Virus record (IMG/VR): IMGVR_UViG_3300021963_004506
Span: 1 to 29,166 of that record
Length of the DNA stretch: 29,166 nucleotides
Source of the DNA: a virus
Taxonomy: Duplodnaviria > Caudoviricetes
Direction: 5' to 3' (one strand)
Shown here: one piece after another, positions 5,703 through 24,813 of the stretch
Numbering within the stretch: the stretch's first letter is position 1
Layout of the letters: every line of letters begins with the position of its first letter
Made by a program: the position numbers and the translations under genes
Notes under the pieces: generated by a model
What the model was told of the DNA's origin: nothing
What the model saw: only the letters and a program-made list of their open reading frames with translations
The model's database searches: none

Positions 5703-5888
5703 ATGGGATTATTAGATAAACTAAGCTCAAAACCAGTTAAAAGCGAAGCTCAGTTAGTGTTTTCAAAAAAAGAAATCGAGTTTTTACTCGCTAAACTTAG
5801 GACCGCAACTTATAAAGGTGATGAATTCGAAGCCTTTTATAATGTCTGGGTAAAACTAACAAACGAATTAGAAAAAAACAATCAATAG
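5703..5888 (+). CDS. Hypothetical protein (61 aa), possible fiber assembly factor
   Basis: Helical, charged small ORF with an A-rich start context, followed by a hairpin. Confidence 0.6.
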   Translation: MGLLDKLSSKPVKSEAQLVFSKKEIEFLLAKLRTATYKGDEFEAFYNVWVKLTNELEKNNQ

Positions 5889-5892
5889 TAAG

Positions 5893-5912
5893 AGGACCTT
5901 AATAGGTCCTTT
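5893..5912 (+). terminator. Hairpin, probable weak terminator or processing site
   Basis: AGGACCT (5893-5899), TAAT loop, AGGTCCT (5904-5910), then only a short T tail. Confidence 0.55.
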
Positions 5913-5915
5913 CGC

Positions 5916-5923
5916 TATTTATA
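5916..5923 (+). promoter_or_regulatory. Putative late promoter motif TATTTATA
   Basis: Recurrent motif lying directly before the structured leader. Confidence 0.55.
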
Positions 5924-5928
5924 TGTAC

Positions 5929-5982
5929 ATTATAGGCCCGAAAGGGAAGTGGGCACCGCACATTGGTGTAACCAACCGTAAT
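5929..5982 (+). ncRNA. Candidate structured cis-regulatory RNA (three-way junction) in a 5' UTR
   Basis: GC-rich island in an AT-rich intergenic region. P1 ATTAT(A)GG/CCGTAAT, P2 CCC-GAAA-GGG, P3 TGG-GCACC...GGTGT-(AA)-CCA. It ends 10 nt before ATG 5993. Confidence 0.55.
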
Positions 5983-5992
5983 AGTAACAAAA

Positions 5993-6865
5993 ATGCCAAA
6001 CTGGAAAAAACTCATCGTAAGTGGGTCAAGTGCACACTTATATAATCTTAATGTAGCTAGCGCTGTAACTGCTTCTTACTTCAAAGGAGACGGTTCCGGG
6101 TTAACTAACCTTAACGCTACAGTATCTGAACAAGCTACAGTATCAGATTCATTCTCTAATACCTTAACTAAGGTAGTTAATCATAATTTTTCATCTAAGA
6201 ACCTTGTTATAAGTGTTTATGATGGAAATGATAATCAAATTATTCCAGCTACTGTTAATTTAACAGATAATAACAACGTTACTATTACATTTAATCAACT
6301 AACAACAGGAACAGTTGTAGTTGCTAAGGGAGGTCATATTGTTGGAGGTAATGCTAAAATAGATCAAGTAACAACTATTACAGATACCTTCACTAATGCT
6401 ACTACTAAGGTAGTTACCCATAATTTTAACACTAGAAATATATTAGTTTCAGTTTACGATAATGAGTATAACCAAATTATACCACAGTCTGTAAATGTAG
6501 CTAACTTAAACACAGTAACCGTTACTTTTAATCCTGCAACAACAGGATTTGTAGTAGTTGGTAAAGCTGGACATATTGTTTCCAGTTCCGCTGTCGATTC
6601 TACAAAGTTAGGCGGCCAATTACCATCGTATTACCTTAATTATACTAACTTTACAAATATACCATCTACCTCTTACAGACAAACTATAGAAGGTAGTGGA
6701 CCTTTCACTATAACTCATAATTTATCTGAAGATTTTCCAGTAGTACAGGTATATACTGCTCAGAGAGAGCAAGTATTACCAGCTAAGATTTTATCTGCTT
6801 CAAGTAATGCAGTAGTATTAGAGTTTAGTAGTTTTATTTCAGGGAGTGTAGTAGTAAATAAGTAG
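5993..6865 (+). CDS. Virion protein with WKKL N-terminal motif and three tandem ~65-70-aa beta domains
   Basis: MPNWKKLIVSGS, followed by three repeats of V.HN[FL]....[LIV]V.VY....Q[IV][IL]P........V.[IVL].F....G.VVV. Confidence 0.78.
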   Translation: MPNWKKLIVSGSSAHLYNLNVASAVTASYFKGDGSGLTNLNATVSEQATVSDSFSNTLTKVVNHNFSSKNLVISVYDGNDNQIIPATVNLTDNNNVTITFNQLTTGTVVVAKGGHIVGGNAKIDQVTTITDTFTNATTKVVTHNFNTRNILVSVYDNEYNQIIPQSVNVANLNTVTVTFNPATTGFVVVGKAGHIVSSSAVDSTKLGGQLPSYYLNYTNFTNIPSTSYRQTIEGSGPFTITHNLSEDFPVVQVYTAQREQVLPAKILSASSNAVVLEFSSFISGSVVVNK

Positions 6866-6910: not shown

Positions 6911-9900
6911 ATGAGAATTGACAATCCAATAGGTATTAACGCCGCACTGACAGGGTCCTTTAGTGGATCTTTCTTTGGAAACGGTAGCGGCTTAACAGGT
7001 GTAGCAGCTTCCAACGTGGAGTATACTAACGTACTTAATAAACCAACCTTACTATCAGGTTCAGCACAAATAGCATCTCAGATATCTGGATCATTTAGTG
7101 CAGTTTCTGCATCAATTGCTTCTAGGTTTGATAACTTAGGATCTGGTTTTGCAACCGATACCGAATTAGCTAACGTCTCTTCTTCTGTTGCAGGAGATAT
7201 AACAAATATCTACAACACTTACGCTACGGATACCGAATTAGCTAACGTCTCTTCTTCTATAGCTACTAGATTTGATAACTTAGGATCTGGTTTTGCAACC
7301 GATACCGAATTAGCCGACGTTTCTTCTTCTATAGCTACTAGATTTGATAACTTAGGATCTGGTTTTGCAACCGATACTGAATTAGCTAACGTTTCTGCAT
7401 CAATTGCAGGAGATATAACAAACATATATAATACCTACGCTACGGATACTGAATTAGCTAACGTTTCTTCTTCTTTAGCTTCAAATCTAACAAGTCTTAA
7501 CACTACTGTAAACAATTTAGACAGTACTTATGCTACAGATGGACAACTAACAGCGGTATCAAGTTCAATTATAAACACAATTAGTGCTAACTTACAGACT
7601 TTTGATATAGCATCAGGATCTTTTGCAACTAGAATTGACTCTGTAAACACAACAATAAATAATCTAGGAAATACTTACGCTACTGATAGTGAATTATCAA
7701 CTATCTCTGGATCCTTTGCTACAAGATTAACAACAGATGAGAGTAACATAAGCACAGCTACAAGTGTTAACTCTACCCAAAATAATAGATTAGCAGCTTT
7801 GGAAGCAGCAACAGGTTCATATCAGTCTGGGTTGACGTTTAGTGATACAGCAGGACAGGGTGGAATTGATTTTACTAATACAGCAGGTACTATTTCTGCT
7901 ACAGTAGTAGGATTAGGTACAACAAGTAATGTAACATTTAATAACGTTACTATTAATGGTACTTCAACAGCACAAACACCTAGTAGTAATGATAACTCAA
8001 CTAAGATTGCAACAACTGCATATGTTCAAACAGAACTTACTGATTTAATCGGTGGTGCATCTGCTGCATTTGACACTTTAATAGAAATCTCAGCATCACT
8101 TGCATCAGGTGATACTACTTTAAATACTTTAGTTGACGGAAAATTATCTAAAGCTTCTAACTTATCAGATTTAACAAATACATCAACTGCTAGAACTAAC
8201 TTAGGAGTAGCTATCGGTTCAGATGTACAAGCCTATAACGCAACACTCGCTTCTGTAGCAGGAGGAACTTACAGTGGTGATGATTCTATTACAACAATAG
8301 GTACAATAGTAGCAGGTAACGTAACAAACATTTTACCAGCAGGAACAGTCAGTGGATCAGCTCAAATAGCATTGGGTTCTGCAAGCGGTAATATAGCTTT
8401 ATCTACTCAAACGACTGGTGATTATGTAGCAAGCTTAGTTGCAGGTACTGGAATTACTTTAGCAAACAATACAGGAGAAGGAGCTACTCCAACGATTACA
8501 AACTCTGCACCAGACCAGACAGTTGTACTGACAGCCGGATCTAACGTAACTATTTCAGGTACTTATCCAAGCTTTACAATTGCATCAACAGATACAAATA
8601 CTACTTATACAGCATCTACCGGCTTAACTTTAACAGGTACAGCTTTTAGTATTGATAGTACTGTAGCAACATTAACTGGTACACAAACTCTTACTAATAA
8701 AACAATAAATGGTTCTCAATTAGTAGACGGTTCTGTAGCAAATGCTAAATTAGCTAGCTCTACAATCTCAGGCGTTTCATTAGGTTCTAACTTAAATACT
8801 TTAACAATTGGAACTGGATTAAGTGGAACTTCATATAACGGTAGTGGTGCAGTAACAATTGCAAACACAGGTGTAACATCAATTACTACAAATACAGGTT
8901 TAAGTACAAACGCAAGTGCAACGGGAGGCGTAACAATTACCAACACAGGTGTAACTTCAAACGTAGCAGGAAACGCTATCACTGTAAGTGGAGCAACTGG
9001 AGCAGTTACTATTAACCACGCCGATACATCTACCGCAGCTAATTTAACCGCTTCAAGTAGAACTTATGTATCAGCATTAACATTTGATACATACGGACAC
9101 GTTACTGCATATAGTACAGCTACAGAAACTGTAACCGATACAAATACCGTAACAACTAACATAGCAGGAACAGGAATTAGTGTATCTTCAGGTACTGGTA
9201 ACTCGACGATTACAAATACAGGTGTAACATCTATTGTTGCAGGTACTGGAATTACAATCAGCGGTGCAACAGGAGCTGTCACTATCACAAACGGTATTAC
9301 CAATAATAACCAATTAACAAACGGTAGTGGATATATAACAGCGTCTTCTTCTGACACACTAACTAATAAGGGCGGTAATATCTCACAATGGACTAATAAC
9401 TCAGGATACCAAACAACATCTGGTCAAGTTGCTAAAGTAGAAAATACAGTATCGGGTACTAGTTCAGCAGACTTAGTTTACGGTAACATGGCAGATAATG
9501 ACCAGTTCCGTATTAGAATAGGAGGTACATCTTCTAACGCAGGCTTTGTAGAAATTGCAACAGCAGATGACGCTACTGAACCAATTTATGTTCGCCAATA
9601 CACAGGAGTATTTAGTTCATTGTCTAGAACAGGTGCATTATTAGATGGATCAGGTAATACAACATTCCCAGGTGATGTTACAGCTTATTCTTCTGATGAA
9701 AGATTAAAAGAAAATGTCCAAAATATACCAAACGCATTAGATAAAGTACTATCTTTAAATGGAGTAACTTTTGATTGGAAACAAGAAGCTTTCGATGCAG
9801 GATTCAATCCTAAGATTAAAAAAGAAGATGCTGGAGTATTAGCACAACAAGTACAGGCAGTGTTACCACAAGCAGTTAGACCAGCTCCTTTTGACTTAGA

Positions 9901-10045
9901 CGAAAAGGGAGGATCAAGATCAGGAGAGAATTACTTAACTGTTCAGTACGAAAAATTAGCTCCATTGTTTATTGAAGCAATAAAAGAGCAACAAAAACAA
10001 ATTCAAGAATTAAAAGCAGAATTAGAAGAACTAAAAAATAAATAA
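6911..10045 (+). CDS. Long trimeric fiber protein with C-terminal intramolecular chaperone (peptidase S74)
   Basis: Ser/Thr-rich repeats; DNSTKIATTAYV, NLSDL....TARTNLG and QTLTNKTI fiber motifs; C-terminal SDERLKEN..I.NALDKV..L.GVTFDW...GV.AQ.V..V.P...V.Y.KL...IEAIKE followed by a coiled coil. Confidence 0.9.
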   Translation: MRIDNPIGINAALTGSFSGSFFGNGSGLTGVAASNVEYTNVLNKPTLLSGSAQIASQISGSFSAVSASIASRFDNLGSGFATDTELANVSSSVAGDITNIYNTYATDTELANVSSSIATRFDNLGSGFATDTELADVSSSIATRFDNLGSGFATDTELANVSASIAGDITNIYNTYATDTELANVSSSLASNLTSLNTTVNNLDSTYATDGQLTAVSSSIINTISANLQTFDIASGSFATRIDSVNTTINNLGNTYATDSELSTISGSFATRLTTDESNISTATSVNSTQNNRLAALEAATGSYQSGLTFSDTAGQGGIDFTNTAGTISATVVGLGTTSNVTFNNVTINGTSTAQTPSSNDNSTKIATTAYVQTELTDLIGGASAAFDTLIEISASLASGDTTLNTLVDGKLSKASNLSDLTNTSTARTNLGVAIGSDVQAYNATLASVAGGTYSGDDSITTIGTIVAGNVTNILPAGTVSGSAQIALGSASGNIALSTQTTGDYVASLVAGTGITLANNTGEGATPTITNSAPDQTVVLTAGSNVTISGTYPSFTIASTDTNTTYTASTGLTLTGTAFSIDSTVATLTGTQTLTNKTINGSQLVDGSVANAKLASSTISGVSLGSNLNTLTIGTGLSGTSYNGSGAVTIANTGVTSITTNTGLSTNASATGGVTITNTGVTSNVAGNAITVSGATGAVTINHADTSTAANLTASSRTYVSALTFDTYGHVTAYSTATETVTDTNTVTTNIAGTGISVSSGTGNSTITNTGVTSIVAGTGITISGATGAVTITNGITNNNQLTNGSGYITASSSDTLTNKGGNISQWTNNSGYQTTSGQVAKVENTVSGTSSADLVYGNMADNDQFRIRIGGTSSNAGFVEIATADDATEPIYVRQYTGVFSSLSRTGALLDGSGNTTFPGDVTAYSSDERLKENVQNIPNALDKVLSLNGVTFDWKQEAFDAGFNPKIKKEDAGVLAQQVQAVLPQAVRPAPFDLDEKGGSRSGENYLTVQYEKLAPLFIEAIKEQQKQIQELKAELEELKNK
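7103..7462 (+). repeat. Five tandem 72-bp (24-aa) coding repeats, pattern A-B-A-A-B
   Basis: Units start at 7103, 7175, 7247, 7319 and 7391. A = VSSSIATRFDNLGSGFATDTELAN, B = VSSSVAGDITNIYNTYATDTELAN (consensus). DNA is near-identical within each type. Confidence 0.93.
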
Positions 10046-11118: not shown

Positions 11119-11973
11119 TTGAAAGTAATTTGGGTTTTAGAAAATATAAAAGATGATGAGAGAATCTACGGAAAACTAAATACTCTCATGCTTATTGCTT
11201 CTGTACAATTATGGAAGAAAAACCACCCTACTCACAACTGTGTGATGTATTGTGATAAATTAACCCTACAGTATTTAGAACGTCTCTCTATTACTCATTT
11301 ATGGGATAGTATAGAAGTATACATACACACAAGAAATATTGATAGAAACGTATTTTGGGCAGCTAGTAAAGTTGGAGTTCTTTCTCAACAAACAGAACCA
11401 GTTATCCTTATGGATAATGATACGTTAGTTTATAAACCTATTGCACACCTTTTAGAAAAAGACACAACATATGTATGTAATCTAGAGAAGGGAAGAGGAT
11501 ATTATCCTACAGGTTATGATGAAATAATAAAGAAACTAAGTTACCGCCCTCGATGGAAAACAGAATCAGCATGTGTAGCTTTTTTATATCTTCCAGATCC
11601 AAAATTTACTAGGTTATATGCTAATATGAGTTTAGATATGATGGAAGAGTTGACTGCTTTAGGAGCACCAAATTCACAATACTTAATTTTTTCTGAGCAA
11701 TTACTTTTGAGACATCTTCTAGAAATTAAAAACAAACCCCTTAAAGGTCTTATAAGAACCTATTGGGATTGTCAGGCATGGCAGTGGGGGGAAGATCATA
11801 AAGACGGTATATGGACCTTTCATGAATCTCAACAGTACTTTAAGCATTACGGGCCTTTGAAAACCTGGATTATAAAAAATGAAGGAGATCAAGATTATAA
11901 AAAGGAAATAAAAGAGTTGGAAAATTGCGTAAATATGCCTAACTTAGACCTATCGTTTATGACGGTAATGTAA
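11119..11973 (+). CDS. Putative GT-A-fold glycosyltransferase (DUF6734-like), TTG start
   Basis: SVQLWKK...MYCD, FWAASKV....Q.EP.ILMDND (DxD motif), EQLLL and a late H.G motif. Confidence 0.55.
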   Translation: MKVIWVLENIKDDERIYGKLNTLMLIASVQLWKKNHPTHNCVMYCDKLTLQYLERLSITHLWDSIEVYIHTRNIDRNVFWAASKVGVLSQQTEPVILMDNDTLVYKPIAHLLEKDTTYVCNLEKGRGYYPTGYDEIIKKLSYRPRWKTESACVAFLYLPDPKFTRLYANMSLDMMEELTALGAPNSQYLIFSEQLLLRHLLEIKNKPLKGLIRTYWDCQAWQWGEDHKDGIWTFHESQQYFKHYGPLKTWIIKNEGDQDYKKEIKELENCVNMPNLDLSFMTVM

Positions 11974-12726
11974 ATGTCAATAGTAGATTTAAAATACATA
12001 CAGGAAAAAATAACTACCAACAACGGAACTCCAGTAGATTATAGATGGACACATGGCGCAACAGATAAGCATCTCGGAGACGGATTAATAGTTTATAGCA
12101 TCATACAAATGATGCGAGCAAAGGTATGTGTATGTATTGGATCTGGGAGCGGATTCATTCCCCGTATAATGACACAAGCTCGAATTGACTTATATAACCA
12201 AGGTATTTTTGAAGGAAATGGAGACTACAATTGGGGTGACATTGGGACTACTTACGTTGTTGATGCTTGTAACGGCATTGGTGGCCCTAACGATTTGGAT
12301 AACGAAGATTCATTCTACAGGAAGAACTTTTATCCGAGATTTATTAAATCGACTTCTCTCGACGCCTATTATGATTTCTTTGTTCGACAAGATATTCAAA
12401 TAGATTTTCTTTTTATAGATGGAGACCATTCCTACGAAGGAGTTAAGATAGATTTTGAACTTTACTCAAAACTATTATCTCCATCCGGTCTCATAATGTT
12501 GCACGATACGGACTCTACTTATGAAGAGACTTTAATAATTTCGGAAGATGCAAAAAAAGATCATCATAGATTTGACGGTCCTTCTAAACTAGTAGTAGAA
12601 TTAAAAGAGTCTAAAGAGTGGAATGTGATGAACTTCCATAACTTTGGAATAGTAAAAGATAAACCATCCTCATCAGGAATAACAGTTATACAGTATGCTC
12701 AATCTAGTAACAGTAGTAGGACGTAA
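11974..12726 (+). CDS. Class I SAM-dependent methyltransferase (Methyltransf_24-like)
   Basis: VCIGSGSG motif I and IDFLFIDGDHSYEGV..D......L...G.I.LHD. Confidence 0.88.
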   Translation: MSIVDLKYIQEKITTNNGTPVDYRWTHGATDKHLGDGLIVYSIIQMMRAKVCVCIGSGSGFIPRIMTQARIDLYNQGIFEGNGDYNWGDIGTTYVVDACNGIGGPNDLDNEDSFYRKNFYPRFIKSTSLDAYYDFFVRQDIQIDFLFIDGDHSYEGVKIDFELYSKLLSPSGLIMLHDTDSTYEETLIISEDAKKDHHRFDGPSKLVVELKESKEWNVMNFHNFGIVKDKPSSSGITVIQYAQSSNSSRT

Positions 12727-13534
12727 TACTCACTTACTCCCTCATATGTTAAAACATTATGAAGGAAAAGTTGATAAAAATTATGTAGCAGTTTACCGTC
12801 AAGACGAAAATGACGGAGTACTAGAAGAAGTTTTAGACTTAGGAATTAATCCTTATATAATTGTTACAGATGAGAAATACAACTGGGAGAGAGTGACCGC
12901 TCTTTATAACTTCGTAAAACAAACTAAACCTAACGATTGGTGGATAGTTTCAGATGATGATGAGCTACAAGTATACCCTTACGAAATTTCAGATATAATT
13001 AAAGAATGTGAAAAGCATGGTTACGACTTTGTAACAGGTGGCTTTTTAGATAGAATAGGACCTGATGGTTCTTTTCCGGAAGTAGATAGAGAAACAAATA
13101 TCCATTCTGCTTTTCCTTATGCAGGTTTTTTTAGACACCCAATGTCTAAAGCATGTCCTAATAAAGTGACTCTAATGAAGGGGTTTCAAGATGTATGCTC
13201 AGGACAGCATTATGCTACCTTTAAAGATAGAACAAACAGCTGGGGGAAAGCACACCCGAAAAGAATGCCTATTGAGGAAGTATTTACTCAAGTGCATCAT
13301 TTCAAATGGGACGCTACTTGTGTGGAGAGAATAAAAGAAGTAGCTGATGTTGATAAGCCTTATGCATATTCCGCCGAGTATAAAACAATGTACAATGCTA
13401 TAAAAGTATTTGACTGGAAAATTGATATATGTAATCCTGAATTCAAAGTTGAAAAATTGAATAATTTTTCGTATATTGATTATATGGATTACTCCAAATG
13501 GAATTTATTAAGAGATAAAATTGTTACAATATGA
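12695..13534 (+). CDS. GT2-like glycosyltransferase
   Basis: L.HMLKHY, WWIVSDDDE (DxD motif), G.H and VHHFKW, typical of Glyco_tranf_2_4/GT92-like proteins. Confidence 0.72.
   Translation: MLNLVTVVGRNTHLLPHMLKHYEGKVDKNYVAVYRQDENDGVLEEVLDLGINPYIIVTDEKYNWERVTALYNFVKQTKPNDWWIVSDDDELQVYPYEISDIIKECEKHGYDFVTGGFLDRIGPDGSFPEVDRETNIHSAFPYAGFFRHPMSKACPNKVTLMKGFQDVCSGQHYATFKDRTNSWGKAHPKRMPIEEVFTQVHHFKWDATCVERIKEVADVDKPYAYSAEYKTMYNAIKVFDWKIDICNPEFKVEKLNNFSYIDYMDYSKWNLLRDKIVTI
13448..13477 (+). promoter_or_regulatory. Internal promoter-like motif GTTG-N16-TTCGTATATT
   Basis: Lies inside the 3' end of the GT2-like gene, 53 nt before ATG 13531, with the same spacing as the copies at 11068 and 28175. Confidence 0.55.
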
Positions 13535-13740
13535 ACAAAACACTAAAACAAGATGAATTAGATCTAATCGCTTTAGAAGAAAGAAAGGTTAGAGCTTTAG
13601 AAAAGATTGCAGCATCTATGGATGCATTAACTATTTGGTTTGAAGAGATTGATAAGGACGATTGGAGTGAACGTGTGCAATTCTACTTAACAGAATTTCA
13701 TAAATTCCAATCACCAAAAGATCCAACCATAAATGGATAA
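13531..13740 (+). CDS. Hypothetical protein (69 aa)
   Basis: ATGA-coupled to the upstream gene and overlapping the downstream gene; acidic and helical. Confidence 0.65.
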   Translation: MNKTLKQDELDLIALEERKVRALEKIAASMDALTIWFEEIDKDDWSERVQFYLTEFHKFQSPKDPTING

Positions 13741-15148
13741 ACTTGGTCTTATAGTACCTTATAAGAATAGACCTCAACAACTTTTCGATTTTAAACTAAA
13801 GATTTCTGGATACCTTACAGAATATAGTATCAACTACGAACTTATTATTGTAGAACAAAACGATACAAAAAGTTTCAATAGAGGTAAACTTTTAAATATA
13901 GGGTTTGAAAAAGCAAAAGCTTTGGGGTGTACTTATGTATGCTTTCATGACGTTGATATGCATCCAGTTAAGGTAGACTATAGTCCGGTAGATAAACCAA
14001 CACAATTAGCTAATCGATTTGTATACGAAGAAGGTGTACATAGAACTATCACAGATGACTATTTTGGAGGAGTTACTTTGTTCCCTGTTTCGCAGTTTGA
14101 GGATATCAACGGATATTCAAACGAATACTGGGGTTGGGGATTCGAAGATAACGACTTACTAGCTAGATGTAGAGAGAAAGGAATTCCCCTTGGAAATAAG
14201 TTTTATAAGCAAAACGGTATAAACGGAATAGGGTTAGAATTTAACGGAGAATCTTCTCTTGTTAGATTTCCTAATGTATGTAATTTTAGAAAACCTCTAA
14301 CGATTTATACAACCTTTAAACCTTATAGAGTTAAAACAACATCGACAGAGATTACAGATGAATTCGCAATATACTCTATACCAGGTCAAGATCTAAATTT
14401 ATCATATAACTCTTTTAATACTTATAAATTTGAGACATTTAATAAGTATGGAGAACCTCATTCTATACATACAAAGAACTTACCACCGTTAGCATGTAAG
14501 AGTATAGTAACAATCAATCCAAGAACTAAGCAAATTGAGTTCTACTTGAACGGAGAGAAAATAGGTAGAAAAGGAATCAAAGACTTACTATACCCGTACT
14601 GGGATGAAGAGTATATGTACTTAGGAGTAGGTAATCCTTTACGAGAAGAAAAGCAAAAATACTACTACGGGTATATTACAGAATTTGCTATCTTTAGTAG
14701 AGAGTTAAATCCTGCTGAGATCAAAACATTAAGTAGTAACTCTAGGCACGGATTGACTCAGGAGTTTGGAGACTATTCACCACATACAGACCTAGAAGTT
14801 TACTACGACGGTAAGCACACGGTTGGTAATACTATTAAAGACTTGTCAGGTAATAATAAAGACGGACAGCTTATAGACTGCGGTTTAGTAGAAACCTTCC
14901 AGCCTCAAGAATATACTCAATTAGTTCCAAGCCGAAGATACAGTACATTCAAAGTCTTAAAGCATAAAGAGAACGGATATCAAGACGGGTACTGGGTCAA
15001 TTGGGCTAGTAGAGAAAATCAAATGAGGTATTACGAAAAGATTAAAGACGGACTTACTTTAGATTCTGACGGATTAAGTACACTACGTTATAAAACACTT
15101 TCGAGTAAAAACAAAGATAATTATCACCATTTAGTAGTTACGTTATGA
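13733..15148 (+). CDS. GT7 (beta-1,4-galactosyltransferase-like) glycosyltransferase with inserted LamG-like domain
   Basis: IVPYKNR, FNRGKLLNIG, FHDVD, YFGGV, INGYSNEYWGWGFEDND and C-terminal DGLSTLRY. The insert has FNG, FYLNG, G.I.EFAIFSREL...EI and DLSGN. Confidence 0.88.
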   Translation: MDKLGLIVPYKNRPQQLFDFKLKISGYLTEYSINYELIIVEQNDTKSFNRGKLLNIGFEKAKALGCTYVCFHDVDMHPVKVDYSPVDKPTQLANRFVYEEGVHRTITDDYFGGVTLFPVSQFEDINGYSNEYWGWGFEDNDLLARCREKGIPLGNKFYKQNGINGIGLEFNGESSLVRFPNVCNFRKPLTIYTTFKPYRVKTTSTEITDEFAIYSIPGQDLNLSYNSFNTYKFETFNKYGEPHSIHTKNLPPLACKSIVTINPRTKQIEFYLNGEKIGRKGIKDLLYPYWDEEYMYLGVGNPLREEKQKYYYGYITEFAIFSRELNPAEIKTLSSNSRHGLTQEFGDYSPHTDLEVYYDGKHTVGNTIKDLSGNNKDGQLIDCGLVETFQPQEYTQLVPSRRYSTFKVLKHKENGYQDGYWVNWASRENQMRYYEKIKDGLTLDSDGLSTLRYKTLSSKNKDNYHHLVVTL

Positions 15149-16563
15149 CAAAGCATAAACTAGGGGTCTGTGTTCCTTATCGAAATAGAGAGCTACATTT
15201 ACATGAGTTTATACCTAAGGTAGGAAAGTACCTAAAAGAACAAGGTATAGATTTTCAAATGTACTTCTGTCATCAAGTAGATGATAAATTATTTAATAGA
15301 GGAGCAACAAAAAATATAGCTGCAAAGCATGCATTCGAAGACGGATGTGATTACATAGTATGGCATGATATTGATATGATCCCAGAAGAGGATTGTGATT
15401 ATTCATACCCTGAAAATGTACCACGACATATTGCTACTAAGATTTCACAAATGGACTATCAACTTAAGTATCATGAATACTTTGGTGGAGCAGTTTTATT
15501 TACTAAGGAGCATGTAGAAGCTACAAATGGTTATTCTAATAACTACTGGGACTGGGGAATGGAGGATGATGATCTCTTTTGGAGATGTCATGTAGAAGGT
15601 CTTACACGAAATACTTACTTAGGACCGCAACCATTAAAACAAAAATATTGGAGTTTTAACGGAGAAGATTCCTATATGAAGATTCCTTTTCATAGAGAGA
15701 TGAGAGGATTGACAGCAGGTAGTCATACTATCTCAGTATTAACTAGAGCTTTTCAACAACCAGAAAAAAATCCTATCTTTCTATTAGGAGATACTAATAA
15801 CAAGTATGTAGAATATCCTATATTTAGATTACCAGGATATGATTATGGTATTTCTTTTAATAACTCTAGAGCCATGACTCTAACTTTTTGGAATAATTTT
15901 GATGCACATAATTACATGTGGGTTAAAAGATATGACGACCAATGGAGTTGGGTTACTGCAGTTATAAATGAAAATATAAAAACTGCTCATTTTTACTTAA
16001 ACGGAACAGAGGTAGATTCTAAAGGAGGGTTTGGGAGTCCTTCTCCATTAGAGTGGGAAGGTAAATTAAAAAGCTACGGAATCAATTCTGCATATTTAGG
16101 TATGACTCCTTCTTTAGAAGAAGGTAATCCTGTAAAGTATTTTAAAGGAGATATAGCTAAGGTATTTGCTTGGAAGAGAGCTTTAAGTCCTGCAGAAGTA
16201 GCAACTATGCACTTGAATTTACCTAAGGGAGATCTTATAATAAATTTAGACGCGGATTACCCTAGAACAACAGTTGAAAGTTACGGAGTAGAAGAAAAAG
16301 AAGAGACTTTTAGAATACCTAATTCAATCATACCTTATAGAGTAGAAGGTAAGTTTAGATGCTTACCACACCCAGATGAAGGTATTGTGAATGGTAGATT
16401 TGTAAAAGGAGAAACAACTGCAGCTAATGAAAAACGTTATGTACTCCAGATGCAACAAGGTAAAGTTAATTACAAAGAAGACGGAATAAAACAAGTTCAA
16501 TACAGTTTAGTAGAAGAGAAGCAATTGACTCCTTGGGCTAAAATGTTAAATATAACCCTATGA
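15145..16563 (+). CDS. Second GT7 glycosyltransferase with inserted LamG-like domain (paralog)
   Basis: VPYRNR..HL, FNRG..KN, WHDID, YFGGA, NGYSNNYWDWGMEDDD and DGIKQVQY. The insert has FNG, W.WVT.V, FYLNG and FKGDI..V..WKRALS..EV. Confidence 0.88.
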   Translation: MTKHKLGVCVPYRNRELHLHEFIPKVGKYLKEQGIDFQMYFCHQVDDKLFNRGATKNIAAKHAFEDGCDYIVWHDIDMIPEEDCDYSYPENVPRHIATKISQMDYQLKYHEYFGGAVLFTKEHVEATNGYSNNYWDWGMEDDDLFWRCHVEGLTRNTYLGPQPLKQKYWSFNGEDSYMKIPFHREMRGLTAGSHTISVLTRAFQQPEKNPIFLLGDTNNKYVEYPIFRLPGYDYGISFNNSRAMTLTFWNNFDAHNYMWVKRYDDQWSWVTAVINENIKTAHFYLNGTEVDSKGGFGSPSPLEWEGKLKSYGINSAYLGMTPSLEEGNPVKYFKGDIAKVFAWKRALSPAEVATMHLNLPKGDLIINLDADYPRTTVESYGVEEKEETFRIPNSIIPYRVEGKFRCLPHPDEGIVNGRFVKGETTAANEKRYVLQMQQGKVNYKEDGIKQVQYSLVEEKQLTPWAKMLNITL

Positions 16564-17930
16564 GTTTACAAGAAGTAAAAAACAAACTAGACGGAGTAGG
16601 ATGTGGGTTTTGTTTAGCAAAATGGACTCAAGTTACTATGCACCTAGGGATGGGGATGACACACTCTTGTCACCACCCATCACCGCATAAGATACCTCTA
16701 AAGGAGGTAGAAAGGAATCCTTCTGCTCTACATAATACTTCTTATAAAAAACAGAAGAGGAGAGAAATGTTAGAAGGAGGAAAACCAGAAGAGTGTAACT
16801 ATTGCTGGAAAGTAGAAGAAAGCTCTAACTCTTTTTCTGATAGAGTTTTTAAATCCTCAGAACCATGGTCATTAGACCAGTTTGATAAAATTAAAGATAG
16901 TCACTGGCGAGAGGATTTTAATCCAAGATATGTAGAAGTATCTTTCTCAAATACCTGTAACTTCAAGTGTGCTTATTGCGGGCCACAGTATTCATCTAAA
17001 TGGGTAGAAGAGATTGAGAAACACGGGGCATACCCAACTAGCTACAATTTTAATGATATCAGCAATATACAGGCAAGAGGAGAGATGCCATATAAGCATT
17101 CCGAAATCAACCCCTATGTGGAAGCATTTTGGAAATGGTGGCCGGACTTATATAAAGACTTACATACCTTTAGAATTACAGGCGGTGAACCTTTATTGTC
17201 AAAAGATACTTTTAAAGTTCTAGAATACATACAAGACCATCACCATAAGAATCCAAACCTATCTTTATCAATCAACTCTAACCTTGGCGTTCCGGATAAC
17301 TTGATTGACAGGTTTATAGAAATTGCTAAAGACCTTTGTGAAAATGATAAAGTAAGAGAATTAACTATCTTTACTTCAGTAGAAGCAAAAGGTGCTCAAG
17401 CAGAATATACAAGGTATGGATTAGAGTATGATAGGTTCTGGAGTAATGTAGATAAGATATTAACCGCTTTACCGAAAGTTACTATCAATATCATGGCAAC
17501 ATTCAATGCACTTTCTGTATTTAGTTACGACGAGTTGATTGATAAGACTTTTGAAATGAAAAAGAAACATGCTAATGGACAAAGGTATTGGATATCTGCT
17601 TTACAACTAGATACATCTTACTTGAGATGGCCAACACATCTTTCTGTTAAGATACTAGAACCAGAACATAAAACATCAATTTTGAAGTCTGCAGAAAAAG
17701 CCTTATATTACGGTATAAAGGAATTTACTAAAGACAATTATGGATTCTCTAATGTAGAGATTCAGAAAATAAAACGCATTTACGATTATGCTATTTCAGA
17801 AGATAATTTCGATATAGAGAGAAATAGAAAAGATTTTGTTATATTTGTAGATGAATTAGATAAAAGAAGAGGTACAAACTTTTTAGAGACATTCCCTGAA
17901 CTAAACGAATTTTATGCTAAAATTAAATAA
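16560..17930 (+). CDS. Radical SAM enzyme with N-terminal twitch (Fe-S) domain
   Basis: C-X13-G-X4-C...CNYC, then CNFKCAYC (CX3CX2C) and TGGEP. Confidence 0.9.
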   Translation: MSLQEVKNKLDGVGCGFCLAKWTQVTMHLGMGMTHSCHHPSPHKIPLKEVERNPSALHNTSYKKQKRREMLEGGKPEECNYCWKVEESSNSFSDRVFKSSEPWSLDQFDKIKDSHWREDFNPRYVEVSFSNTCNFKCAYCGPQYSSKWVEEIEKHGAYPTSYNFNDISNIQARGEMPYKHSEINPYVEAFWKWWPDLYKDLHTFRITGGEPLLSKDTFKVLEYIQDHHHKNPNLSLSINSNLGVPDNLIDRFIEIAKDLCENDKVRELTIFTSVEAKGAQAEYTRYGLEYDRFWSNVDKILTALPKVTINIMATFNALSVFSYDELIDKTFEMKKKHANGQRYWISALQLDTSYLRWPTHLSVKILEPEHKTSILKSAEKALYYGIKEFTKDNYGFSNVEIQKIKRIYDYAISEDNFDIERNRKDFVIFVDELDKRRGTNFLETFPELNEFYAKIK

Positions 17931-18498
17931 AGGGGAACCGTGGGTATTTTGGCCAAGTAGTATCTGCGACACTTTCCCTGAAAATCCGGGAAATAAAATA
18001 CTAAGAGGAGATTGCTATTTTGAGTTCAATATTAGGTTTACATTAAAAGAAAAACCTTTAGAAAGAAAAACTATATTTGCACTACTACCTAAATACACAG
18101 GATTAGATATCCATTCAGAAGGAATGGTTTTTGCATATACTACAGAAGAAGAAACTTATTATATTAACCTACCTTCTCTAATAAAGGAAGGAGAAGAAGT
18201 TTTATTAACAGTAATACATCAGCCAAATAGGTATTTAAGAATATTTATTAATAGAGAATTAATTGAAGAAATTAATTTAGATAATAAGGTTTTTGGAATA
18301 GATAATAGCCCGCATATCATATTTGGAGCAGGCAACTTCCCTAAAAATAACTTTAACCTCAATTATGTAGATTTAGATCTTCATGAATTTATATTAATAG
18401 GAATAACAGGAGTCATATCTCATCATACTTTTGAAGAGTTTATATTTGATAAGTCTGTTGATATTTCCGGTAACCTAAATTTTATACATAAATTATAA
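17914..18498 (+). CDS. Stand-alone LamG/concanavalin-A-like domain protein
   Basis: Beta-rich, with LRIFIN, IIFGAG and C-terminal DISGN, echoing the LamG-like inserts of the GT7 genes. Confidence 0.55.
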   Translation: MLKLNKGEPWVFWPSSICDTFPENPGNKILRGDCYFEFNIRFTLKEKPLERKTIFALLPKYTGLDIHSEGMVFAYTTEEETYYINLPSLIKEGEEVLLTVIHQPNRYLRIFINRELIEEINLDNKVFGIDNSPHIIFGAGNFPKNNFNLNYVDLDLHEFILIGITGVISHHTFEEFIFDKSVDISGNLNFIHKL

Positions 18499-20120
18499 TG
18501 GGAGTTTTCGCAAAAAAGGACAATGAATCGTTCCAAGAATATAGAGAAAGGGTTATAAATAAACTATCCCAATCGTTTTGTGGTGCTAAATGGTATAATG
18601 CTACCATTTGGTTAGGTAACGGTACAACAGCTAGTTGTCATCACCCACCTGCACATAAGATACCTTTGGAAGAAGTTGCTAAGTCATATAAAGCAATTCA
18701 CAATACTACTTACAAAAAAGCTATCAGAAAACAAATGATGGAAGGTGAAAGACCTAAAGAGTGTGAATACTGCTGGAAGATAGAAGACTTAGGACCTGAT
18801 AAAGTATCAGATAGAGTATACAAATCAGTAATCTATACAGATGAAGAGTTAAAAGAAGCTAAAGGTAGTTTAGGATATACAGAAGATGTTGACCTTAAGA
18901 CACTTGAGATTGCTTTTGATCCTAATTGTAACTTTGGATGCTCTTACTGTAATGCTTCTTTTTCAACTACATGGCAAAATGATATAAAAAAGTTTGGACC
19001 TTATCAAAACTTAGTTTCAGACGGCGCCGGAGCTTTCCAACACGATGGAAGACACGCAATGCCTTATGGAAGAAAGAATGAAGGTAATCCCTATATAGAA
19101 GCATTTTGGAAATGGTGGGAAGCAGAACTACAATTCTCTTTACGAGAGTTAAGAGTAACAGGAGGAGAACCTACTATGTCTCCTGATTTCTGGAAGTTGA
19201 TGGACTGGTGGAAGAAAAATCCTCAATGTGAAGTGCCTTTTGCAGTAAATTCAAACTTAGGACAAAAGAAAGAATTATTAGATGCTCTTATAGAAGCTAC
19301 TCATAGTTTTAAAGAATTTAATTTGTATACATCTTGTGAAGCTACAGGCTTACAGGCCGAGTATATTAGATACGGACTTGAGTGGGAAACTTGGTTACAA
19401 AATATGTACCGAGTTAACAAAGAAGCAAACGTCAAGTCTGTAAACGTAATGATGACTATAAACGGATTATGTTTATTTTCGATTACAGAGTTTATGGATG
19501 AAATAATAAAGTTAAAGTCAAAGCATGGAGCTCATGCAGCTATTATGTCTTTTAATATACTTCGTTTTCCATCATTCCAGTCTATAGTAACACTCCCTGT
19601 TTATATTAGAATGGAGAGAGCAGCTCATATTGAAAAGTGGTTAGAAGCAAACTGGAAAGAAGGTTCTAACGGATTATTAGATATGGAAAGAGATGGTTTA
19701 TTAAGACTAATTGAATATATCAAACAAGTAGATACAGGGCATGCTTTTACTTCATCTCTAGAGAGTAGAGAAAGAGACTTTAAATCTTTTTATACTCAAT
19801 ATGATATAAGACGAAATAAAGACATTATTAAAGCATTCCCAGAAATAAAAAAATGGTGGGATACAATACCAGAGACTAAGCTTGATGCACTTAAAGAAGT
19901 AATAGACGGAGATGATGCTAAATCAAATAGATATGTACACGACGTACTAAAACAAGCAAAAGAAGAAGGGTGGGTACTTAATCCACAATGGCATAACCCA
20001 GGTTCACAAGAGTACATAGAACCAGATAATCAACAACAAGACGATATGATTGACTTGATTGATTTATTAAAAAAAGAATCTGATCCAAACGGTCCAGGTA
20101 TAAAGCATAAATTAATATGA
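18498..20120 (+). CDS. Radical SAM enzyme with N-terminal twitch domain (paralog 2) and acidic C-terminal extension
   Basis: C-X13-G-X4-CHH...CEYC, CNFGCSYC and TGGEP. Shares NPY.EAFWKWW with the 16560 protein. Confidence 0.9.
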   Translation: MGVFAKKDNESFQEYRERVINKLSQSFCGAKWYNATIWLGNGTTASCHHPPAHKIPLEEVAKSYKAIHNTTYKKAIRKQMMEGERPKECEYCWKIEDLGPDKVSDRVYKSVIYTDEELKEAKGSLGYTEDVDLKTLEIAFDPNCNFGCSYCNASFSTTWQNDIKKFGPYQNLVSDGAGAFQHDGRHAMPYGRKNEGNPYIEAFWKWWEAELQFSLRELRVTGGEPTMSPDFWKLMDWWKKNPQCEVPFAVNSNLGQKKELLDALIEATHSFKEFNLYTSCEATGLQAEYIRYGLEWETWLQNMYRVNKEANVKSVNVMMTINGLCLFSITEFMDEIIKLKSKHGAHAAIMSFNILRFPSFQSIVTLPVYIRMERAAHIEKWLEANWKEGSNGLLDMERDGLLRLIEYIKQVDTGHAFTSSLESRERDFKSFYTQYDIRRNKDIIKAFPEIKKWWDTIPETKLDALKEVIDGDDAKSNRYVHDVLKQAKEEGWVLNPQWHNPGSQEYIEPDNQQQDDMIDLIDLLKKESDPNGPGIKHKLI

Positions 20121-21445
20121 AATTTGGATTCGACAAATATGTAGAGATAGAGGGTGAAATTCATAAGTACCCTCTACCTAATGCTTTAATCGCGGCTGAC
20201 CAGGTACTTCATACTCATGCAGAATTAAGAAAATATAACGTGTATAGTTTGCTCTTTAAACAAGATCTTAATTACGAAGATTTTTCATACGGACATGACA
20301 CTGTTGATAATTTAATAAAACAAAAAGAAAACTTTATATATACAATACTGATTCGTCAACCTAAAGATTTTGAAAAGATTAGTGACGAAACTTTATATAA
20401 GTTTCCTGCTAAAGTCATAGACGTAGTCAAGAAAGGTAAAGCTAAGATAGTACTAAGTTATTTATTTGAAGGAGATTTTTATAAACAAGATGATATAAGA
20501 GCTATAAATCAATTCGTAGTAAAATACAGCTTAAGCAAAGACGATGTAATACTACTAACAAATAACTTAAAATACAAATATACAGAACCGGCAAATAGTA
20601 ATTTTACAACTGTAGTCTTTAATTACTTTTTAGTTAATCAGTGGTTTTCAAAAGATGACCTACTATCTAATTCTATCAATACACAATCTGGAATTCGACT
20701 ACGAGAAAATTTAGAATACATAAGTATATATAGAAAGCCTAAAAAATTCCTCTCTTTAAATCGAAGACCTAGAGTTCATAGAATTGCTCTATTTACAGAA
20801 ATAATGAAAGACCCTATCCTTAAAGAAAACTCAATTATAAGCCTGGGAAGTAGAAACTTAGAATCTAATAACCATGATGGCTATGGACACGATTGGGTAG
20901 ACTGGTATAAACATATTATTTCAGAAGACTACAAATACGGAAAATATTCCGGTATAGATTTTTTAAAGAACTATGACAGTAGTCAAGAGTCTTTTGTCGA
21001 TTCAAATTTAGAATATAATCTAGCTTTTAACTTTAATCAAACATTGCACCTTAATACATTTGTTAATATACTTACAGAGACTTTGTTTGAAAATGAAACA
21101 GTTTTTTTATCTGAAAAAGTATTTAAGCCGATACTAGGATGTCAACCTTTTATAATACTCGGCAACCCCGGCTCAATTCAAGAACTAAAAAATATAGGTT
21201 TTAAGACATTTGAAGACTTTTGGGATGAGAGTTACGATAGTGAATTAGACTTTTCCAAGAGGTTAGAAAAAATAATTACAATACTAAAAGGATTAGCAGA
21301 AAAGACTGATCAAGAACTTTTAGAAATGACAAAACAAATGCTCTCAATTTTACAGCATAATTACGAACATATAAGATTCGCTGCAAGAGATGAAGTATGG
21401 CAATTAAAACAAACTTTAGATGAGCAATTCAACAAACAACCATAA
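20117..21445 (+). CDS. Putative GT-B glycosyltransferase (GT10/exostosin-like C-terminal motif)
   Basis: FLSLNRRPR.HR and NILTET......FLSEKVFKPI...QPFIILG......LK..GF.TF...WDESYD. The (T/S)EK motif recalls the GT10 donor-binding motif. Confidence 0.55.
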   Translation: MKFGFDKYVEIEGEIHKYPLPNALIAADQVLHTHAELRKYNVYSLLFKQDLNYEDFSYGHDTVDNLIKQKENFIYTILIRQPKDFEKISDETLYKFPAKVIDVVKKGKAKIVLSYLFEGDFYKQDDIRAINQFVVKYSLSKDDVILLTNNLKYKYTEPANSNFTTVVFNYFLVNQWFSKDDLLSNSINTQSGIRLRENLEYISIYRKPKKFLSLNRRPRVHRIALFTEIMKDPILKENSIISLGSRNLESNNHDGYGHDWVDWYKHIISEDYKYGKYSGIDFLKNYDSSQESFVDSNLEYNLAFNFNQTLHLNTFVNILTETLFENETVFLSEKVFKPILGCQPFIILGNPGSIQELKNIGFKTFEDFWDESYDSELDFSKRLEKIITILKGLAEKTDQELLEMTKQMLSILQHNYEHIRFAARDEVWQLKQTLDEQFNKQP

Positions 21446-22703
21446 ACAATCAGAACATTTTTGTGCTGCATTATGGATGCACCTACATGTTTTAAACGAT
21501 GGTAATACATATCCTTGCTGTATGACTCCGATGGAGAAAAAAAATAGTTTAGGTAACGTAAACGATACTTCACTTTTTGAAATTATAAATAGTGAGAAGG
21601 CTAAATCAATGCGTAAAGATATGTTAGAAGGAAAGCCACTACCTGCTTCATGCACAAGATGTGTAAGTAAAGAAAGCTCAGGAATGACCAGTATGAGAGT
21701 TGGTATGAACCACCACTGGTATGATCAAATAGAAGACTTAGTAGAAAGTACAAATGAAGACGGAAGTGTAGATGAATTAAGATTATTGTATTGGGATTTT
21801 AGATTTAGTAACTACTGTAACCTAGCATGTAGAACCTGCTCACCACTCTTTAGTACATCTTGGAATAAAGACTTTATAAAAGTGTTTGGGGAAAATGCTG
21901 CACCTCCAGAGCACCTAGGCTTAATTAACCTAGACGGTGCTACAAACTTTTGGCAAAACATAGAAGAAACTATTCATACAGCAAAAGAGATCCATTTTGC
22001 AGGAGGCGAACCTTTAATCATGCCTGAGCATTGGAAGCTTATAGAAATGTTAGAAGAACGTAACCTGTATGATGTTAAGTTGAAATACTCTACGAACGCT
22101 ACAATGCTTGAAAATAAAGGAAGAAACATAGTAGATATATGGAAAAAATTTAAACATGTACATTTAAGCCTATCTATAGATGGAACCGGAGATCTTTTTG
22201 AACTAGTTAGACATAATGGAAAATGGCCTAAGACTAAAGAAAATTTATTGAAAATTGAAGAAGCAGGTATTGACTACTGGTTACACCCGACAATAAGCCT
22301 TCTTAATATATTTAGAATAGATGAAATGCATAGAGATTTTTTTGAAATGGGATTAATACCTATAGAAAAGAAAGCTCATGAAGAGTATGATTTTAATCCA
22401 AACTTTTATTTTACAAGTAGATTTCACATAAACCCAGTTTTTTGGCCTAATTATTATGCTCTAGAGACACTTCCAAATGAATTAAAACAACTAGCAACTG
22501 AGAAGATAACAAAGTATGGAAAGCAACTAGAAAAAGACCACGGTATTCCATTTTCAGGATGGGAAGGATTATTAGATATAATGAATAAAAAAGAAGGGAA
22601 TCCAGAACAGTTTAAAAAGTTTATAAAGGTTACTAAGGATTTAGATAAGTTACGTAATCAAGATTTTTTGAAATTGAACCCAGAATTTAAATCATACTTT
22701 TAA
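21420..22703 (+). CDS. Radical SAM enzyme with N-terminal twitch domain (paralog 3)
   Basis: C-X12-G-X4-CC...CTRC, CNLACRTC, FAGGEP, YSTN, SIDG and R...W. Confidence 0.9.
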   Translation: MSNSTNNHKQSEHFCAALWMHLHVLNDGNTYPCCMTPMEKKNSLGNVNDTSLFEIINSEKAKSMRKDMLEGKPLPASCTRCVSKESSGMTSMRVGMNHHWYDQIEDLVESTNEDGSVDELRLLYWDFRFSNYCNLACRTCSPLFSTSWNKDFIKVFGENAAPPEHLGLINLDGATNFWQNIEETIHTAKEIHFAGGEPLIMPEHWKLIEMLEERNLYDVKLKYSTNATMLENKGRNIVDIWKKFKHVHLSLSIDGTGDLFELVRHNGKWPKTKENLLKIEEAGIDYWLHPTISLLNIFRIDEMHRDFFEMGLIPIEKKAHEEYDFNPNFYFTSRFHINPVFWPNYYALETLPNELKQLATEKITKYGKQLEKDHGIPFSGWEGLLDIMNKKEGNPEQFKKFIKVTKDLDKLRNQDFLKLNPEFKSYF

Positions 22704-23641
22704 TGAAAGGATTTATTTGGAATATAGAATCAGAAACACAGTTTAAAGACGTAGTTAGAGACGATTATAGTAGAGTTGTATTTCTCGATGGAAAAATCAA
22801 CGAACAGTTTGGAGTGGAGATTAAGTATTTATCAGATACGGAAAAACAAGAGACAGTAGACGCGTTTGAAAAAGGTAAAACTGATATTGATAAAGATGAT
22901 GTATCTTATTATATTAATAAGTACGGAGCTCGTGGAGATTGGAGTATAGAAGAACAAAAAAATGACCACCTGAAAATAGCAGTTTTTGGATGTAGTTTTA
23001 CTTTTGGGGTAGGTATGCCAGAAAGCAAAACCTGGGCAGCTCAATTTGTACAAAAATTACAAGTAGATAAACCTGTACAGTTAATTAACTTAGGATACCC
23101 TGGTGGTAGTATTGCAAAAAACTTAAAGCATTTTAAATACCTAACAGATATCTACAAAATAGATATGGCGGTATTTTTACTACCGACACATTGGAGAGAA
23201 GAGTACCCAGATTATTATACATCAGATCATCCTGTCACTTATTACAACTTTATACCTAATTATGGTTTTAAGTATAAAAAAGAAAAATGGGAACAGTTCT
23301 ATAGCTACTCAACAGCCGGTACAAGATTTTATGATATGGTTAAGATGATTTCATATATAGAACTTATCGCATCAGTAAAAAATATTGAAACTTACTACAG
23401 TTCTTGGGACGAACAGACATTGAATTTTATTAGAGAGCATAAACTTGTGAAGCTTTATCAAATACTTCCTTATTTTAAATTTTTAGAAACTATGGTAGTA
23501 CCTCATTTTAATAATAAGTTCGCTCGTGACGGTTTTCACCCCGGTATTGCTTCTCAAGATTTATTTTCAAGCGAACTAGCAGATCATATATCTAGTAAAA
23601 CATTAATACAGGGTATAATTAAAAAGATTAAAGTAATATGA
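22703..23641 (+). CDS. SGNH/GDSL-like acyl esterase or transferase
   Basis: Block I FGCSFTFG, block II INLGYPGGS and block V DGFHPG. Confidence 0.65.
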   Translation: MKGFIWNIESETQFKDVVRDDYSRVVFLDGKINEQFGVEIKYLSDTEKQETVDAFEKGKTDIDKDDVSYYINKYGARGDWSIEEQKNDHLKIAVFGCSFTFGVGMPESKTWAAQFVQKLQVDKPVQLINLGYPGGSIAKNLKHFKYLTDIYKIDMAVFLLPTHWREEYPDYYTSDHPVTYYNFIPNYGFKYKKEKWEQFYSYSTAGTRFYDMVKMISYIELIASVKNIETYYSSWDEQTLNFIREHKLVKLYQILPYFKFLETMVVPHFNNKFARDGFHPGIASQDLFSSELADHISSKTLIQGIIKKIKVI

Positions 23642-24813
23642 AAATAGGTTTTATTGGTATTGGAAAGCTTGGTAAAGACGCTGCTGAGGTAATGGCAGAA
23701 AAGCATTATGTAGAAGGTTATGATATAAATAAAAATATTTCTATTGACAGTAATGTAAAAGTTGTAGAAAGTATTCAAAAGGTTTGTAAAGACAAACAGT
23801 TAATTTTTATAGCAGTTCCTACTCCGCACCATCCTGATTACGATGGCAGATACCCTACCTCTCATTTACAGAATAGAGACTTTGATTATACAGTTGTAAA
23901 AGAAGTTTTAAATGAAGTTAATAATTACACTAATAAAAGTCAACTAATAATACTAATTTCAACTGTTCTCCCGGGTACTATAAGAAGAGAGTTTATACCG
24001 TTTGTAGAGAATTTTAGATTTATATATAATCCATATTTGATCGCAATGGGAACTGTAAAGTATGATATGGCTAACCCAGAGATGCTAATAATAGGTACAG
24101 AAGACGGTACTGAGACTGGCGATGCTAAACTACTTATAGATTTTTATTCTACATTTGTAAACCCTTCTACTAGAATTGAAATAGGTACTTGGGATGAAGC
24201 TGAATCAATAAAGATATTTTACAATACTTTTATATCAACTAAAGTTGCTCTTGTGAATATGATTCAAGATGTTGCTGAGAAAAATGGAAATATAAACACA
24301 GACGTAGTTACAAGAGCTTTAGAACGAAGCACCCAGCGCATCTTAGGCCCTGCGTATATGAAAGCCGGAATGGGAGACGGCGGCGGCTGCCACCCTCGTG
24401 ATAATATTGCATTGAGATTTTTAGCAGAAGAACTCAAATTAGGGTACGACTTATTTGATTCTATTATGAAAGCTAGAGAAAAGCAAGCAAAAAATCTAGC
24501 AAATAAGTTGGTTCTTTACGCAAAAGTTCATAAATTACCTGTAGTTATACTAGGTAAATCTTATAAACCAGGAGTACATTTCGAAGATGGATCTTCATCT
24601 ATACTAGTAGGTTACTATGTAGAAGAACAAGGGTACGAGGTTTTGTACGACATTGAAGATCCAATACCAGCAATTTACCTACTAGCTCATTATAAAAAAC
24701 ACCATGATTTTGATTTCCCTAGAGACTCAGTTATAGTAGACCCATGGAGAGAATATAAATCAGATATTAATAGGGTTATACACTACGGGAATACTAGATT
24801 ACTAAATGGCTAA
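23638..24813 (+). CDS. UDP-glucose/GDP-mannose 6-dehydrogenase family protein
   Basis: GIGKLG Rossmann motif, FIAVPTP, ISTVLPGT, YNP, AE.IK.F.N, catalytic GGGCHPRD and GKSYKP. Confidence 0.9.
   Translation: MKIGFIGIGKLGKDAAEVMAEKHYVEGYDINKNISIDSNVKVVESIQKVCKDKQLIFIAVPTPHHPDYDGRYPTSHLQNRDFDYTVVKEVLNEVNNYTNKSQLIILISTVLPGTIRREFIPFVENFRFIYNPYLIAMGTVKYDMANPEMLIIGTEDGTETGDAKLLIDFYSTFVNPSTRIEIGTWDEAESIKIFYNTFISTKVALVNMIQDVAEKNGNINTDVVTRALERSTQRILGPAYMKAGMGDGGGCHPRDNIALRFLAEELKLGYDLFDSIMKAREKQAKNLANKLVLYAKVHKLPVVILGKSYKPGVHFEDGSSSILVGYYVEEQGYEVLYDIEDPIPAIYLLAHYKKHHDFDFPRDSVIVDPWREYKSDINRVIHYGNTRLLNG

Follow-up and report, generated by a model that had tools for sequence, protein, structure and literature searches.

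A putative three-way-junction RNA conserved in the leader of a fibre-like gene of Immutovirus-related aquatic phages

Genomic Context and Local Fold of the Element

The control of virion fibre dosage after transcription has been little described, and a GC-rich island directly ahead of a fibre-like gene in a tailed phage raises the question of whether its transcript folds into a regulatory RNA and what such an RNA would respond to. The window, meaning the whole stretch of DNA analysed (29,166 nt; IMG/VR record IMGVR_UViG_3300021963_004506), is a 29 kb tailed-phage fragment that contained genes for PhoH, a head-tail adaptor, a tail fibre, the sheath, the tube, and a baseplate hub. Its sheath protein shares 65.7% identity with the sheath of Flavobacterium phage vB_FspM_immuto_2-6A, a member of the genus Immutovirus. 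The island occupies positions 5929–5982, ahead of the ATG at 5993, and both these coordinates and the pairings given in the preliminary description were correct. Its depiction as a GC-rich island among A/T leaders was also accurate, since 27 of its 54 nt are G or C vs. 8–25% in the comparison leaders (the final 60 nt of each of the other eight intergenic gaps of at least 20 nt, or all of a gap with fewer than 60 nt).

All parts of the locus lie on the plus strand. A terminator-like hairpin of nine pairs (5891–5912), recognized by consensus match alone, stands 3' of a small gene and is followed by the intergenic word TATTTATA (5916–5923), a presumed phage late promoter upstream of P1. The 5' strand of P1 (5929–5936) carries a bulged A5934 and a near-invariant GG, and the P2 hairpin (5937–5946) combines a conserved CC/GG base with a loop and a length that vary. 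The near-invariant AAGU of the junction (5947–5950, with AAG at 5947–5949) leads into P3 (5951–5973), which consists of two proximal pairs, a 2-nt bulge, a conserved G·U and C-G, and a variable distal stem-loop; with the U5950-A5974 pair included, P3 spans 5950–5974, with the AA bulge at 5970–5971 and the loop at 5958–5964. The remainder (5974–5982) comprises the junction AA (5974–5975), CC, and the 3' strand of P1 (5976–5982), which reaches positions −17 to −11 relative to the start codon.

Folding of the single sequence gave a minimum free energy of −13.0 kcal/mol (z −0.45), and 68 of 200 shuffled sequences folded as well. The minimum free energy structure in the window lacked P1, and the full junction (−12.2 kcal/mol) lay 0.8 kcal/mol above it. 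Single-sequence folding was thus rejected as evidence for an RNA, being no better than shuffles, and because the window sequence alone stands at chance level, the structural evidence comes from homologues. A covariance model found one copy in the window, with no second copy above 13.5 bits.

The usual upstream neighbour of the element (5703–5888) encodes a 61-aa helical-hairpin protein, a candidate chaperone or ligand, modelled as two helices (residues 22–34 and 39–60). Of 138 loci, 130 have a homologue at most 900 nt upstream, and four of five loci checked among those without an adjacent copy have one at another place on the contig; two paralogous copies of this family were present in 47 of the 138 loci. 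The family had no Pfam or PHROG match, and the median net charge of its core is −1, i.e., not basic. The gene downstream of the RNA (5993–6865) encodes a 290-aa MPNWKK-type virion structural (fibre-like) protein (phrog_16122, E 7.5e-22) modelled as three beta-rich repeats, and the gene that occupies this position in Immutovirus carries the annotation tail fiber-like. Fold searches with either protein returned nothing at E 0.001, and their atlas matches were unnamed. The original label of "fiber" for the 290-aa protein therefore holds by family labels, with no fold match behind it. The long fibre gene that follows (6911–10045) contains direct repeats at 7140–7470 (ATDTELANVS units) and encodes a C-terminal Peptidase_S74 chaperone.

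Conservation Ahead of the MPNWKK Gene

Leaders were chosen by the coding pattern (MPNWKK start) alone in order to avoid circularity, which gave 108 distinct leaders. The motif was carried by 105 of these, 102 directly and three about 120 nt upstream, and the three leaders without it precede unrelated ORFs. Its core (GGC, GGAAGU, G, C, A, and CC) was retained in 104–105 of the 105 leaders at each position. In contrast to this, none of 88 leaders of an upstream MAxWKK paralogue had the motif. Furthermore, the motif stayed with the MPNWKK gene in the eight of 138 loci where the upstream small gene had been replaced. The proposed check for conservation upstream of MPNWKK homologues thus came out in favour of the element, and these sequence comparisons support the earlier reading of a cis-regulatory element, i.e., a cis-acting structured RNA tied to its downstream gene.

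Larger searches gave a similar picture. A strict pattern listed at least 120 stretches in viral contigs (about 310 estimated), and among the 120 listed, 110 were followed by an MxxW start, eight had inserts, and two were chance-like. A looser pattern in metagenomes gave an estimate of about 2800 stretches, and among 120 matches listed, 110 precede MPxW, four were truncated, and six were other. A loose pattern scan, in which 17 of 100 loci scored, was discarded because most of its matches were due to chance. The covariance model recovered one strong copy per genome in nine of ten records, the nine having been selected as carriers, and no copy in Microcystis phage Mel-JY01. A copy is also present in immuto_2-6A, the cultured Flavobacterium phage, at 137892–137946 of NC_055915.1; a blastn search with 5703–6200 against cultured phages gave no match. 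As judged from these alignments, the element is one copy of a sequence kept ahead of one fibre-like gene in hundreds of aquatic phages.

In cellular genome contigs, nine matches were obtained, of which six were chance-like and three combined the motif with an MP(N/S)WKK gene on MAG contigs. The latter (L322, L326, and L328) are labelled Pelagibacter, Bifidobacterium, and Flavobacteriales, respectively. They were read as phage contigs, leaving no convincing cellular copy, and they are probably misbinned phage DNA and hence do not provide evidence on the host.

Covariation and Secondary Structure

Pairing was evaluated in 110 aligned distinct copies that fit a loose structural pattern, nearly all of which had first been found by the gene. 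In this set, 96.1% of cells were paired, and two-sided changes occurred at 13 of 18 pairs; none of 500 shuffles reached as high a value, and slid controls were 29–48% paired. RNAalifold, unaided, predicted the identical 18 pairs. An anchored alignment was made of 181 distinct copies (the mis-parsed row L130 left out), and its six strongest column couplings were all predicted pairs. Tree-independent contrasts, based on a FastTree tree of upstream proteins and the 121 of 181 rows with enough flank, indicated that partner bases change together in P1 (7/7, p 0.016), in P2 (about 10/15 concerted and none opposite, p 0.002), and in distal P3 (13/13, p 0.0002, and 8/8, p 0.008). The contrasts were too few for proximal P3 (4/4, p 0.125) and for the second P1 pair (two contrasts), and six non-partner control column pairs were not significant. 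All three helices thus covary across the copies compared, as the preliminary description had proposed to check on MPNWKK-type leaders. The predicted pair probabilities in 177 leaders (medians of 0.20–0.25 for P1, 0.86 for P2, and 0.92 for distal P3) point to stable P2 and P3 and a marginal P1.

Selection for a 3' C-to-U change alone retrieved 29 matches, probably of one clade, and all 29 carried the partner G-to-A change, which confirms the P1 pair that closes the junction. Two other pairings were rejected because this G-C to A-U change supports P1, namely a pairing of the last CC with the GG of P2 and an SRP-like G·A reading. In the 110 copies, swaps numbered 56/51 for U·G/U-A and 88/19 for G·U/A-U, and this G·U swap bias favours a plus-strand RNA over a DNA-level or minus-strand reading. 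The U5950-A5974 pair did not covary, and U·U was found in three of 303 copies (3' triplet CCU), so this pair may be non-canonical. The AGU opposite AA would fit a bulged-G S-turn, but the adjoining pair is a covarying Watson-Crick pair.

The loops of P2 and P3 vary in length and sequence, whereas the junction is nearly invariant. The GNRA tetraloop described earlier is present in P2 of the window copy, but it is not conserved among homologues, and the free variation of both loops indicates that it is dispensable. The combination of an invariant junction with free loops suggests a binding site at the junction.

Position Relative to the Transcript and the Initiation Region

All six plus-strand copies of TATTTATA in the window are intergenic, while their total count is not above chance, and TATTTAW was found in eight of the nine window gaps of at least 20 nt. 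Among 181 homologues, 128 have a TATTTATA-type motif 3–11 nt before P1, and 40 have none within 45 nt. We infer from this arrangement that TATTTATA is a late promoter whose mRNA would carry P1 at its 5' end. Contigs of relatives span the element in two of four RNA libraries, which cannot show a transcription start; two RNA-library contigs of relatives read across the terminator-like hairpin, which counts against the operator reading given below, but they may be DNA. The shares found in sequencing runs were small.

This position is compatible with an element acting on the late transcript itself, e.g., a put-like antiterminator or a 5' stabiliser, as the RNA lies 3–11 nt after a promoter-like motif in the 128 homologues and has long genes downstream. 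However, the element is kept in the 40 leaders without such a motif within 45 nt, is not present in any other late-type leader of the window, and is tied to one start codon, and a role in transcription or stability is therefore considered quite unlikely.

The leaders compared point to a fixed link and spacing between the element and the MP(N/S)WKK start, the distance from the end of P1 to the AUG being 6–23 nt. The structure lies at or overlaps the initiation region of one gene, which is a feature of translational operators. In F. johnsoniae, translation is stimulated by A-12 and A-13, according to the accessible part of PMC6847099. Among 134 leaders without a Shine-Dalgarno (SD) sequence, P1 covers position −12 in 106 and −13 in 111, and an A occupies −12 and −13 in only 76 and 75, respectively. 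Of the 43 leaders that have an SD, 28 have it entirely outside P1. This, like the limited share of A at −12 and −13, weighs against the operator reading given below. The element is kept in leaders with and without an SD, which favours a phage-encoded or universal partner.

Proposed Mechanism and Candidate Ligands

The reading that we prefer, and to which we give even chances, is a translational operator, with a phage assembly protein that binds the junction, closes P1, and lowers synthesis. A late mRNA would have a three-way-junction RNA at its 5' end, before the fibre-like start codon, and a phage assembly protein would bind the invariant junction of this RNA. This binding would close the weak P1 over the ribosome landing region, and P1 closure would lower synthesis of the fibre-like protein, repression being the presumed sign. 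The likeliest ligand would be either the product itself, as long as it is unassembled, or another protein of its assembly path. The downstream proteins vary in length between 67 and 992 aa and have only about 21 N-terminal residues in common (89 distinct ORFs), with nothing beyond; feedback by the product would thus need that N-terminal peptide. The WKK peptide is common to the product and the MAxWKK paralogue, and the paralogue is without the RNA. As for the small helical-hairpin protein, its lack of basic charge and of a fold match counts against a role as ligand. Phage bS21 was rejected as ligand because it is encoded in only two of five complete genomes (G002:C1:45259-45411 and G004:C1:160506-160658).

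An alternative to this operator is an initiation element without a ligand, or one facing the ribosome, in which the fold itself sets or enhances initiation, with loop-start pairing in some lineages. The fixed spacing to the AUG agrees with this, and the loops can pair over at least 5 bp across the AUG in 73 of 303 copies vs. 7.5 in loop shuffles, with GGCA located in the P2 loop or in P3 depending on the lineage. However, kin inflate the 73 of 303, the pairing is 4 bp in the window copy, and loop-start covariation is absent (79 of 200 swaps as high), nor does the base before GGCA follow the Pro codon. Simple occlusion, moreover, needs no invariant junction. The codon bias at Pro2 (CCA in 235 of 303) was rejected as RNA pairing, because GCA in 85 of 91 paralogues indicates that a general A bias explains it. 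Loop-start codon pairing is thus at most an optional feature, and this alternative as a whole is regarded as possible but doubtful.

A riboswitch would account for the compact invariant core, the free loops, and the marginal P1 beside the start, and the bulge base tracks the adjacent pair in four of four contrasts (p 0.125), a hint of tertiary contacts. Nevertheless, the gene context is structural and there is no convincing cellular copy, and the window was not matched by the glutamine-I model (RF01739) at E 10. The terminal P1 C-G pairs that hold glutamine in that riboswitch (PMC6698751, accessible part) are not conserved here, with U-A in 160 of 181 copies of a hand alignment. A riboswitch is accordingly judged unlikely, and no likelier is one particular form of it, a virus-specific aptamer of glutamine-I-like architecture with another ligand, with which many aquatic phages would read the host's metabolic or ionic state and set the number of host-recognition fibres per virion. 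If a small-molecule ligand were true, the element would be a phage-specific riboswitch class; a protein ligand would make it a new example of assembly-coupled feedback. The motif is compact, strongly covarying, and widespread, and because a cultured phage of Flavobacterium has a copy, the ligand and the sign are directly testable.

Comparison with Catalogued RNAs and Known Phage Systems

Rfam 15 covariance models at gathering score gave no matches in the window or in 15 loci, and by E-value only weak unrelated matches were obtained. The Rfam check proposed with the element thus identified no known riboswitch or ribozyme. The hammerhead core was absent from the consensus, in keeping with what had first been noted, and catalogued small ribozymes, including the hammerhead, were rejected for lack of an Rfam match. 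The roughly 20 near-invariant nucleotides around the junction might still suggest a self-cleaving ribozyme, or a trans-acting or structural RNA. Such a function is highly improbable, as no Rfam ribozyme matched, the element occurs as a single copy and always before one gene, and no terminator-like site was found directly 3' of it.

The glutamine-I riboswitch (glnA, RF01739), as described in the accessible parts of PMC6698751 and PMC2864571, resembles the element in being a three-way junction of about 55–60 nt in 5' leaders from aquatic sources, and its loop E motif may have a counterpart in the presumed S-turn of the element. On the other hand, the element has the GG before AAG paired in P2 and precedes structural, not nitrogen, genes. 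The glutamine-I features C1:G59 (pair) and C58/G22 (triple) correspond, by hand-matched position, to an outer P1 that is AU-rich and variable. The glutamine-I riboswitch was rejected, RF01739 giving no matches at E 10 in searches whose control exceeded the cut-off in one of 14 genomes.

Phage T4 gp32 and gp43 autoregulate their own translation and provide a precedent for the operator (PMC3014915, accessible part). The element is like the gene 32 and gene 43 operators in being a structured phage leader at a start codon with proposed feedback by a phage protein. Unlike them, it is a three-way junction before a virion gene, whereas the T4 ligands are nucleic-acid-binding replication proteins and the gene 32 fold is a pseudoknot. 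The T4 RegA type, described there as an unstructured A+U-rich site that includes the AUG, was rejected because the site of the element is structured; a search for RegA genes found none in five genomes, but the search control gave no signal either. The GP20-a and GP20-b motifs (RF02991 and RF03003; PMC10690425, accessible part) are likewise comparative-genomics motifs upstream of one phage gene family and presumed to be cis-regulatory, but the element has no Rfam match and precedes another gene.

The feedback logic proposed for the element is that of the phage P22 scaffolding protein, a virion-assembly protein that, when unassembled, reportedly limits its own synthesis; the gene and the phage are different.

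A full-text literature search found no description of the motif in the text available to it, nor did keyword searches of PMC5737381 and the readable supplements of PMC10690425, as far as these are accessible. The motif may be listed as an unnamed candidate among the 8,495 IMG/VR candidates of PMC10690425. By its conservation and covariation, the element is judged to be genuine, an uncatalogued leader RNA with a three-way junction that is carried by aquatic phages related to Immutovirus.

Insertions Between the RNA and the Fibre Start

In some loci, the gap between the RNA and the fibre gene contains inserts, including HNH genes (L082 and L130), NUMOD1/GIY-YIG-like genes (L098 and L600), and, in L069, L469, and L538, mini-ORFs of 37 and 17 aa. 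The fibre start is visible in 11 displaced cases, and in seven of these an ORF begins 11–19 nt after the RNA, i.e., at normal spacing, and stops with an overlap of 8 or 17 nt with the fibre start; these seven coupled cases are related and not all independent. The contig of L504 stops before the fibre gene and is outside the 11. The other four cases (L108 type, L209, L273, and L115) are without a coupled ORF, and their inserts contain, by eye, short complements of the start region. The insertion series fits a translational control that is passed on by coupling, and translational coupling as a relay of control has been described (PMC6728339, accessible part). Overlap after insertion is also the ordinary way of keeping a downstream gene translated. 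A use of the SD for reinitiation in Bacteroidetes was not borne out by the accessible part of PMC6728339.

Endonuclease genes of the HNH and NUMOD1/GIY-YIG-like types have repeatedly inserted at the fibre start (L082, L130, L504, L098, L181, and L600), and the HNH insertions retain the three initial codons, MPN. A second insert, conserved and about 118 nt long, was identified in the gap at L108:1535-1652 (also L160, L182, and L279), L209:2383-2500, and L273; it contains an ORF of 20–25 codons, a hairpin ahead of the ATG, and a T-run/CCAA stretch that is complementary to the WKK codons. A different insert of 128 nt precedes a GTG-start fibre gene at L115:1534-1661 and in L508, and 7 nt of it are complementary to the start region. 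In one subclade (L033:2894-2983, L011:1382-1471, L226, L027, and L029), the leader of the MA/MTxWKK paralogue contains a GC-rich hairpin with an internal loop. Within the window, the region between the fibre and sheath genes (11119–25456) holds a long block of genes whose products resemble, by eye, glycosyltransferases, radical-SAM enzymes, and a nucleotide-sugar dehydrogenase.
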